Source: Synechococcus sp.
GTDB taxonomy: Bacteria; Cyanobacteriota; Cyanobacteriia; Thermostichales; PCC-7336
Direction of reading: 5' to 3'
DNA: 64,000 nt
Assembly: GCA_051439425.1 (NCBI GenBank)
Contig: JBFRWD010000153.1
Location: forward strand, 1 to 64,000
In this document: in pieces, positions 23,878 to 25,598 of the stretch
How the letters are laid out: each line of letters opens with the position of its first letter
Position numbering within the stretch: the first letter of the stretch is position 1
Notes under the pieces: generated by a model
The model's database searches: none
Told to the model about the DNA's origin: nothing
The model's input: only the letters and a program-made list of their open reading frames with translations
Translations under genes and position numbers: made by a program

Positions 23878-23931
23878 CAAACGAAGCGAATCCTGCATTC
23901 GCTCCAGCAGCCTCTTTGGACCTTTTTGCAT
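23878..23931 (-). pseudogene. 5' stub of an integron integrase (intI remnant)
   Basis: Hand translation from the ATG at 23931 gives MQKGPKRLLERMQDSLRL, resembling IntI N-termini (P-K-x-L-L-x-x-x-x-x-x-x-R-L); divergent from the attI-like site; similarity stops after 18 codons. Confidence 0.55.
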
Positions 23932-24091
23932 GGCTTTTGCGCAGGTTCATTCGGATTAATCACCAACTCATGGAGCTTGGGCGGATAAAAACATGGAAAG
24001 AGAGCGAACAGGCACAGAAACAATCCGCCTATTCTCGGGCATAAGGGATATTATGCAGACTATCTGTCCTGCTAAACGCCGTTTGTAGGTG

Positions 24092-24168
24092 ATTAGGCGG
24101 ATGAGTTCCTCTTATTCACCCAAATGAGGATGTTAGGCGGAAAACTTCTACTAATCAATAGTTAGGCT
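24092..24168 (+). other. attI-like integron recombination site
   Basis: Simple site CTAATCAATA-GTTAGGC (GTTRRRY core at 24161) preceded by two direct repeats TTAGGCGGA (24093, 24133). Confidence 0.7.
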
Positions 24169-24186
24169 GCAGGTCAGGAGAAGGGC

Positions 24187-24903
24187 ATGAGGAGTGTCAG
24201 GATACACCTTGCAAACAAGATCGACAGAAAAGTGTTGCCTTGTATGGGTGGCGGCAATGCTGCGGGGATAAGTGTTCCACAGGATCTTATGAAGGCTCTT
24301 GGAGTTGAGGAGGGTGCTAGGGTCCGGGTCATTGATTTCCAGAAAAGAGTCTCGATTCCAGTCAGGGCTTACCACACGGACTTCCAGCAAGTCGGAGTTT
24401 CAAGGCCCGTGAGGGAAGCCCTAGGGTGGGCGCTTAATCCTCAAAGTACCCCTGGAATTTCGCCATATCGCAACCTCCAAATTCGCATCACTCCTTTCGA
24501 GTACGACTTTGCCATTTCCTATGCAAGCGAGAGGCGCGACTATGCCCGGGGCCTGGCAGAACAACTAACCTCGGCAGGGTTTCAGGTTTTCTTCGATCAA
24601 GATAAGAGGCATGTTCTCCACGGCAGATTCCTGCCGGAGGTCTTTGACAGGATCTATGGAGGTAATTCTGATCGATACGCGGTACTTGTATCCCGCGAGT
24701 ATTTGGAAAAGCGCTGGACCATGCTGGAGTTCCAGACAATCAAATCCTGGTTCATATCCCAGAACCGGGATCTGCTCTTCCCAATACAGCTGGATGAAGC
24801 CCAGTTGCCGGAGATGGAAGACTTAGCATACTTGGATGGCCGCTCCCTAAGTATTGCAGAGGTAGCGGAAGTGATGGTGCAGGGCATCTTCGAGGAAGAG
24901 TAG
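24187..24903 (+). CDS. TIR-domain protein, first integron cassette
   Basis: TIR box YDFAISYASE.R.YA, VFFD, VLVSREYLEKRWTMLEF (putative catalytic Glu), LFPIQLD; about 100-aa N-terminal beta-rich domain. Confidence 0.88.
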   Translation: MRSVRIHLANKIDRKVLPCMGGGNAAGISVPQDLMKALGVEEGARVRVIDFQKRVSIPVRAYHTDFQQVGVSRPVREALGWALNPQSTPGISPYRNLQIRITPFEYDFAISYASERRDYARGLAEQLTSAGFQVFFDQDKRHVLHGRFLPEVFDRIYGGNSDRYAVLVSREYLEKRWTMLEFQTIKSWFISQNRDLLFPIQLDEAQLPEMEDLAYLDGRSLSIAEVAEVMVQGIFEEE

Positions 24904-24973
24904 CCTAACTAGCCACAGCAACCGACAGAGCGCGGCATTACGCGCTCGGCGGCTGAGTGGCGGACTGTTAGGA
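24903..24973 (+). other. attC site (71 bp)
   Basis: R'' GCCTAAC overlapping the TIR stop, imperfect palindrome (CCACAGC..GAGCGCG/CGCGCTC..GCTGAGTGG), R' GTTAGGA; AGCCTAAC is the exact reverse complement of the cassette start GTTAGGCT at 24161. Confidence 0.88.
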
Positions 24974-24986
24974 GTAGAAAGACCAT

Positions 24987-25598
24987 ATGGATCGGTATTC
25001 GATAGTACTAAGGGCCGCCAACCCCACGTTCGAGGAAGGTCTGGCATATGTCCGCTACCTTGACCAAGCAGCCGATGGGTTCTTCCACCTTATGCTCGGT
25101 CGCCGTACCGAGGACATAATCGCCACGGCGTTCCTAGAGCCCGGCCACGACCTTTCCTACCAGAACGTGACTTTCGCAGAACGTGACGATGTCATCGTGG
25201 GGATGGTCTGTGCGTACACCGCGGAGCAGCATCGCCATTCTTTGCGCCAACCCCTGAAGCGGGCTGCCGGAGGGTTTAATCTGCGAATGAGGATCGTGGA
25301 GATATTGTTCGCTCCAATGAGGCGGATTATCGACTCAATCGCCGATGGCGATTTCTATCTCCTTGCCATCGCCGTTGACAACGAACTTCGCGGCGACGGC
25401 GTCGGCTCCGTCTTGATGGACTTCGTTGAAGAGCGGGCTCGCGCGAGCAGATCGACTCGAATTTCCCTCGACGTTTCAGCTAGGAATGAGGGAGCTTGCC
25501 GATTCTACGAGCGTCGCGGGATGGGAGTCGAAACCCAGTGGCCGACGCGATTTCCTATACCGGGATTGACGTTCTATCGAATGACAAAAGAGCTCTGA
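24987..25598 (+). CDS. GNAT-family N-acetyltransferase, second integron cassette
   Basis: YLLAIAVDNELRGDGVGS (motif A), N.GA.RFYERRG; starts 13 nt after the attC. Confidence 0.9.
   Translation: MDRYSIVLRAANPTFEEGLAYVRYLDQAADGFFHLMLGRRTEDIIATAFLEPGHDLSYQNVTFAERDDVIVGMVCAYTAEQHRHSLRQPLKRAAGGFNLRMRIVEILFAPMRRIIDSIADGDFYLLAIAVDNELRGDGVGSVLMDFVEERARASRSTRISLDVSARNEGACRFYERRGMGVETQWPTRFPIPGLTFYRMTKEL

Follow-up and report, generated by a model that had tools for sequence, protein, structure and literature searches.

Can an integron that has lost its own integrase gene go on exchanging cassettes, or does its attI site become a fossil? This question is raised by positions 23878-25598 of a 64,000-nt stretch of Synechococcus sp. 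DNA (contig JBFRWD010000153.1 of assembly GCA_051439425.1; the whole stretch is hereafter called the window). The genome is cyanobacterial, from a marine organism, with 11 phycobilisome-family matches; of 14 control genomes, Synechococcus alone was positive. An earlier note on the locus, made from the letters alone, had described a decayed integron with an 18-codon IntI-like start on the minus strand at 23931, an attI-like site with two TTAGGCGGA repeats and a GTTAGGC core, a TIR gene with almost no leader, a 71-bp attC that complements the start of its own cassette, and a second gene right after R', the integrase itself having been deleted. Each of these features was recovered, and we conclude with high confidence that the locus is the remnant of a cyanobacterial chromosomal integron in which intI was deleted, attI stayed intact, a TIR cassette and its attC are retained and the array is truncated. 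What has to be given up is the picture of a lone relic, since the genome has seven attI heads, of which this site is one. In the history that we propose, the TIR cassette would have entered through IntI-catalysed attI x attC recombination, the GNAT gene would be an earlier cassette pushed to the second position, and no cassette would move at present unless an integrase came from elsewhere.

The integrase gene is represented at this locus by its beginning only. A minus-strand ATG at 23931 starts MQKGPKRLLERMQDSLRL, the first 18 codons of an integron integrase (23931→23878, minus strand; from the list of open reading frames, ORFs, and the translation), and past codon 18 the frame has no intI homology and runs to a stop at 23809. 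The identity of the stub was given by a paralogous locus of the same genome: window 23881-24166 aligned with C172:11280-10994 at 81.6% identity over 288 nt (blastn, E 5e-72), and the C172 copy runs on into a 91-codon intI remnant (TIGR02249 positions 1-91, E 2.6e-24) that contains 4 stops. An intact intI was not found in the assembly, which is 96% complete and comprises 182 contigs. TIGR02249 had no match over its cut-off there, and tblastn with three intact IntI proteins of relatives returned the C172 fragment (residues 1 to ~90), a Xer-like recombinase on C64 at ~26% identity and nothing else. Among 61 related genomes of the class, TIGR02249 scored over its cut-off in 27 and matched at E <= 1e-10 in 44. 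An internal deletion took all of intI except its first 18 codons and left attI intact. The junction of this deletion is identical in the orthologous locus of a congener (G003), in which no intact intI was seen either; because the orthologue has the same stub junction and attI, the comparison indicates that the deletion is older than the split between G003 and this genome (G000). Abutting the stub, positions 23789-23877 contain GCCTAAC followed by an 8-bp stem (CCGCTCAA / TTGAGCGG) that ends exactly at the stub breakpoint. This was considered as an attC-like element and rejected, as the attC covariance model described below (R1) had no match to it on either strand and the G003 orthologue does not preserve the stem.

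Between the stub and the first cassette lies the recombination platform. The DNA from the intI start to the attI repeats (23932-24092) holds a conserved block, GGGATATTATGCAGA (24046-24060), that is kept in the paralogues, in the G003 copies and upstream of the intact intI of a relative (G044), and is a candidate -10 element or regulator site; within it a conserved TATTAT (24049-24054) is no more than a candidate for Pc, the integron promoter that drives the first cassettes. Two direct repeats follow on the plus strand, both TTAGGCGGA (24093-24101 and 24133-24141, each conserved in seven genomic copies), of which the first is presumed to be an accessory IntI-binding site. The core CTAATCAATAGTTAGGC (24151-24167, plus strand) consists of CTAATCAATA-GTTAGGC, with the crossover at G24161/T24162, which is also the point at which homology to the paralogues ends. 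In class 1 integrons, attI1 consists of two direct repeats that bind IntI1 and a simple site ending in GTTRRRY. The window site resembles attI1 in having two direct repeats before the core, in the GTT crossover and in its divergent placement beside the intI start; it differs in that the cyanobacterial attI has no sequence similarity to attI1 and the role of TTAGGCGGA in IntI binding is presumed. A TTAGGCGGA-like repeat was also found upstream of the intact intI of a second relative (G035), and heads of the same design (TTAGGCAGA-type repeats, ...CTAAT-N-AGTTAG) stand directly upstream of intact intI in both G035 and G044. Sequence comparison thus places the site beside the start of intI, with GTT as the predicted point of cassette entry. 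The locus defines an attI for a cyanobacterial integron family, its breakpoints being common to 10 copies in two genomes.

Further evidence for this assignment came from the other copies of the head. Stub and attI together form one of seven paralogous heads: five paralogues of 23881-24166 were found by blastn and a seventh copy, on C98, by a profile search in which all seven scored E <= 4e-15. The homology of every head ends at ...CTAATCAATAGTTAG| and is followed in each by a different sequence; when the window head was compared with the six other genomic copies and the three copies in G003, homology ended within a few bases of GTTAG. Five of the seven heads are then followed by R1 matches of at least 22 bits on the right strand, seven on C172, one on C33 (with a second at 19.6 bits) and one each on C77, C98 and in the window; the C175 head is followed by a weak match only (13.8 bits) and the C174 head by none. 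Genome-wide, R1 returned 12 sites, and with the window site added, of the 12 at >= 22 bits, 11 are on the cassette strand at a distance of 0.7-6.6 kb downstream of an attI copy.

The largest of these arrays, C172:4479-11523 (locus L046), has an intI remnant, attI and seven attC sites of 23.7-65.8 bits; among its cassette products are a second TIR_2 protein (E 2.1e-28) and a pair of NAD(P)H-binding proteins, of which one is encoded on the opposite strand. Separately, two R1 matches on the minus strand of C46 (43967-44057, 25.1 bits; 45221-45307, 17.7 bits) are separated by 1.2 kb; an attI head was not detected in their vicinity, and the pair may be a small integrase-less attC cluster (CALIN) at a contig end.

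The attC of cassette 1 occupies 71 nt on the plus strand (24903-24973). Its R'' box, GCCTAAC (24903-24909), overlaps the TAG stop of the TIR ORF, and 57 nt on lies R', GTTAGGA (24967-24973), with an imperfect hairpin between the two. The sequence AGCCTAAC (24902-24909) complements GTTAGGCT (24161-24168) exactly, and the repeat search gave 10 complementary bases of 10; the present R' reads GTTAGGAG. An R'' that matches the start of its own cassette is expected for a cassette that was once a circle closed at G|TT. The covariance model R1 was built from 16 attC sites that lie beside intI in four relatives (G002, G001, G035 and G009), none of them from this genome; in its proposed structure 84% of 351 cells are paired, both partners have changed in 14 of the 22 pairs, and none of 500 shuffles scored as high. 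The best R1 match in the entire window was 24903-24973 on the plus strand, which covered the full model (1-86) at 22.8 bits and E 6.3e-4, a rough value, the calibration having been shortened. With filters off, five matches in the window reached E <= 10, and the best on the minus strand had 8.4 bits. The bottom strand of the site folds at -20 kcal/mol compared to -11.2 +/- 2.25 for shuffles (z -3.9; 0 of 200 as stable). The earlier note had stated that its reading would fall if an attC covariance model did not score this site and homologous loci never had intI upstream. The model scores it above every other position in the window, and homologous loci do have intI upstream, with 91 codons kept on C172 and intact genes adjoining attI in G035 and G044.

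These data also bear on whether the locus is an integron at all. The head could instead mark where an unrelated repeat or transposable element ends, and the hairpin could be a terminator or a chance palindrome. That the head occurs seven times in the genome would be in keeping with a repeat, as would the position of the orphan heads of G035 inside a larger repeat, beside a ~750-bp multi-copy element that is also found in tandem within arrays; Rfam had no match at the locus either: searched permissively, 22000-28000 returned four chance matches below threshold, none of them at the attC. However, the head continues into intI coding sequence both in the window and on C172, intact intI genes of relatives adjoin heads built to the same design, and the attC sites are clustered downstream of the heads. 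Both R boxes are present in the hairpin, the attC model scores it, and a terminator scan returned nothing at 24903-24973 or on the platform. We regard a non-integron origin as very improbable, and the imperfect hairpin of the R''-L''...L'-R' type that ends cassette 1 as an attC.

Cassette 1 (24162-24967, plus strand) is 806 bp long and carries a single gene. Its ORF (24187-24903, 238 aa) begins 25 nt past the crossover GTT and encodes an N-terminal beta-barrel domain and a C-terminal TIR domain, the latter matching Pfam TIR_2 with E 7.7e-15 and 55.9 bits (cut-off 28). PADLOC matches were confined to the TIR part (PDC-S66, E 3.5e-12; ThsB, E 4e-5); in the PADLOC and curated-model searches scores for any named defence system stayed far under the cut-offs and were domain-level only. 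A Thoeris partner such as ThsA does not adjoin the gene, whose neighbours are the attI site and the GNAT gene. The predicted structure (pLDDT 71.9) contains an N-terminal beta barrel and a TIR fold, and Foldseek placed the predicted TIR fold closest to AbTir (7uxu_A, E 1e-6, TM(target) 0.74). The Glu of the W-x-x-x-E motif (WTMLE in the query), which we take to be the catalytic residue of TIR NAD+ hydrolases, aligns with the Glu of WTNYE in AbTIR and is invariant (5/5) in the family alignment of full-length relatives. The TIR fold and the conserved Glu of AbTir/ThsB-like NAD+ hydrolases are thus both present at the level of sequence and model, and an NAD-consuming anti-phage effector is the most likely function. 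The architecture is rare: 4336 domain-level relatives were found at E <= 1e-3, of which just four (34-41% identity) are full-length among 1.84 billion representatives, and the protein is a singleton at the 90% cluster level. A search of genome contigs for the DNA context of relatives, with the window protein or with the relative P0002, gave no match; the one relative whose DNA was examined lies on a metagenome contig (L044) with different neighbour genes. This rare barrel-plus-TIR protein would join the likely defence genes that are carried as cassettes.

The second cassette is open-ended (24968-25600, plus strand). Its ORF (24987-25598) begins 14 nt past R' and encodes a GNAT acetyltransferase of 203 aa, assigned by Pfam Acetyltransf_1 (E 3.1e-15) to the general GNAT fold only; all 13 NCBIfam matches to named acetyltransferases were under their cut-offs, the best being rimI with 34.7 bits against 86.4. 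At least 1004 homologues were found; among the 120 listed, identity is 73-90%, almost every protein has 203 aa, and the source names come from several phyla. Within the cyanobacterial class the gene was present in one of 301 genomes searched, namely this one, and a search for its relatives gave no match in plasmids or viral contigs. G+C is ~0.56-0.57 in the GNAT gene and ~0.41 right past its stop, compared to ~0.52 in the TIR gene. The sequence relationships indicate that the GNAT gene was horizontally acquired and is foreign to the class. The array is truncated at its far end, as this gene has no attC of its own.

The arrangement of the two genes could also be that of a two-gene defence or toxin-antitoxin operon acquired as a unit, with the hairpin as its regulatory element. 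The TIR and GNAT genes lie 83 nt apart on the same strand, and the TIR-attC-GNAT junction is identical in a second metagenome study (X2 record 12, 24854-25005, 0 differences), as such an operon would have it. Against this, the two genes are distributed quite differently, as the four full-length relatives of the TIR architecture and the at least 1004 close homologues of the GNAT protein attest; their G+C contents differ, the TIR relative in L044 has other neighbours, and PADLOC had no match for the GNAT protein. An operon origin therefore seems to us most unlikely. Parts of the locus are covered by contigs from four public sequencing runs with the label marine sediment metagenome; these contigs contain no joints and hence no sign of excision or an alternative arrangement, although contigs drop rare variants and so are not informative on absence.

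While we favor the integron remnant, several details count against it. The attC has a modest score, the last base of R' is A although the consensus calls for a pyrimidine there, and the R boxes adjoin spacers of unequal length (2 and 5 nt). The window attC was not among the sites returned by the genome-wide R1 search, in which 150 of 967 first-look candidates were scored. A strict sigma-70 scan of 23600-24190 found no consensus promoter on the platform, and the relative of the TIR gene on contig L044 has no attC behind it. Behind the GNAT gene, no attC was found by R1 (E <= 10) or by a relaxed generic scan of 25560-26500, in which the best arm duplex had -6.0 kcal/mol compared to -17.2 for a control attC. 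For the "GNAT cassette" of the earlier note this means that the gene does stand behind an attC, whereas its status as a cassette, there being no attC of its own, is something we infer.

With the anatomy in place, the orthologue in G003 speaks to whether the site was used after its integrase was lost. C61:20529-22164 of that genome is 83% identical to window 22527-24165 and has the same acyltransferase gene, stub junction and attI; past the crossover the two loci are unrelated, and downstream of all three G003 heads nothing has a counterpart in this genome. The different DNA past the crossover suggests cassette turnover after the local integrase had gone. Because the orthologue shares the junction but has other DNA, and because relatives with one intI keep orphan mini-arrays, attI may well have remained in use after the loss of intI, a possibility that we rate as serious but slightly short of even. 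The claim that the array is frozen unless an IntI acts in trans is therefore retained for the present day, conditionally, and is doubtful for the past.

The same comparison can be read the other way. With the anatomy unchanged, the locus could be an inert fossil that has never been served since the deletion, the other DNA in the congener having arrived by homologous recombination or gene conversion between heads. Over the final 82 bp of the head (24085-24166), identity is 92-98% to the paralogues C172 and C77 and only 63-72% to the G003 orthologue; over its left part, identity to C172 is 70-81% and that to the orthologue 74-76%. Such a pattern is typical of a conversion tract. Because its last 82 bp are closer to the paralogues than to the orthologue, the heads appear to be undergoing homogenisation, which points to gene conversion or ectopic recombination between them, able to swap arrays without an integrase. 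The lack of a visible intact intI in both genomes suits a fossil as well. The comparison is further weakened by G003 itself, which is 85% complete and whose contig stops 330 bp past the crossover. On the other side, the paralogues cease to be identical at precisely the crossover base, as site-specific insertion of cassettes at each head would predict, and service in trans is the normal state in the group, in which relatives with one intact intI keep orphan heads and attC arrays. Conversion between heads and insertion by IntI are also mutually compatible. We consider the inert fossil possible, and somewhat doubtful. Apart from this, the block common to both genomes (22527-24165) consists of the acyltransferase gene, the stub and attI only, and since both flanks differ between the genomes, the whole block lies in a variable region.

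The relatives with an intact integrase show how such heads are organised. G035, a closed genome, has a single TIGR02249 match, which is intact, and four further copies of its 176-nt attI at 91-99% identity (C1 at 259647, 780035, 1342223 and 1944710; loci L050-L053). Behind each orphan copy, in the expected orientation, come attC sites of 52-63 bits; one head has three of them. G044 likewise has one intact intI and three orphan attI loci with attC downstream (L054-L056). With one intI per genome, the orphan heads of both could be served in trans only. Dispersed attI-headed mini-arrays are, as these sequence comparisons indicate, normal in this group. Tentatively, and with less confidence than we would need to prefer it, we suggest that the integron here may be a distributed system, in which one integrase, or none, would serve several attI landing pads spread over the chromosome, with one to a few cassettes each, the pads being kept alike by gene conversion. 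The window locus would then be such a pad, once a full platform, which went on exchanging cassettes, defence genes included, after its own integrase was deleted. If this is true, standard tools would miss such pads, which have no intI and often a single attC. Taken with G035 and G044, each with one intI and several orphan heads, the locus makes the service of dispersed attI sites by an integrase in trans directly testable.

How much of this is new can be judged from four published accounts. Nearly one third of intI genes are pseudogenes, and Cyanobacteria are among the integron-bearing phyla (Nemergut et al. 2008, PMC2426708); Xanthomonas has chromosomal integrons in which intI is inactivated (Colombi et al. 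2025, PMC12444791); and an origin of CALIN by intI loss and cassette mobilisation by an integrase encoded elsewhere has been proposed (Cury et al. 2016, PMC4889954). Cyanobacterial integrons, frequent intI pseudogenes and integrase-less attC clusters are thus already in print in these three sources. The window locus resembles the decayed Xanthomonas integrons in its chromosomal attI and cassettes, its decayed intI and an inactivation common to related lineages (here G003); it differs in the 18 codons that are left, which a search for C-terminal pseudogenes would miss, in its single attC and in the seven dispersed heads. Integrons have also been called "biobanks" of cassettes that protect against phages and antibiotics (PMC12614218). 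The locus shares with such cassettes a single-gene TIR effector, with a second TIR_2 cassette in the C172 array; it differs in its cyanobacterial host, in the rare barrel-plus-TIR architecture and in that the defence role is predicted from sequence.

Like a CALIN or an In0, the window locus has attC-bearing DNA without a neighbouring integrase. A CALIN contains two or more attC sites within 4 kb and lacks a nearby intI, while the locus has one attC; an In0 has intI and no attC, while the locus has one attC and no intI; and a complete integron has an IntI-type tyrosine recombinase gene, which the locus lacks. With one attC and no intI, it fits none of the three classes of IntegronFinder (complete, CALIN and In0). 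In the IntegronFinder survey, single attC sites were dropped and attI could not be searched for, attI being unknown for most integrons (PMC4889954). Taken by itself the locus is a textbook integron remnant that mainly confirms how frequently integrons decay. It also establishes that integrase-less, attI-headed mini-arrays with a single attC exist, and being outside the CALIN, In0 and complete classes these go uncounted. Of all features of the locus, its multi-copy orphan attI heads have been described least: our literature search found no paper on multi-copy or orphan attI sites, which is not proof of their absence in print.

A few features of the window lie outside the remnant. The second-best R1 match in the window (40614-40702, plus strand, AGCTAAC...GTTAGCT; 18.2 bits, E 0.012) lies 15.6 kb from the attC, and the stop of a 130-aa glyoxalase-family ORF overlaps it (together 40227-40702; Pfam E 1.2e-9); this ORF could represent a solitary cassette that integrated elsewhere than at an attI. 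In the gene-poor stretch past the GNAT gene, two short repeats (26577-26710 and 27643-27774) are multi-copy in the genome and look like miniature mobile elements. The first of these, ~130 bp long, has at least eight copies at 74-88% identity and one copy in the relative G001.

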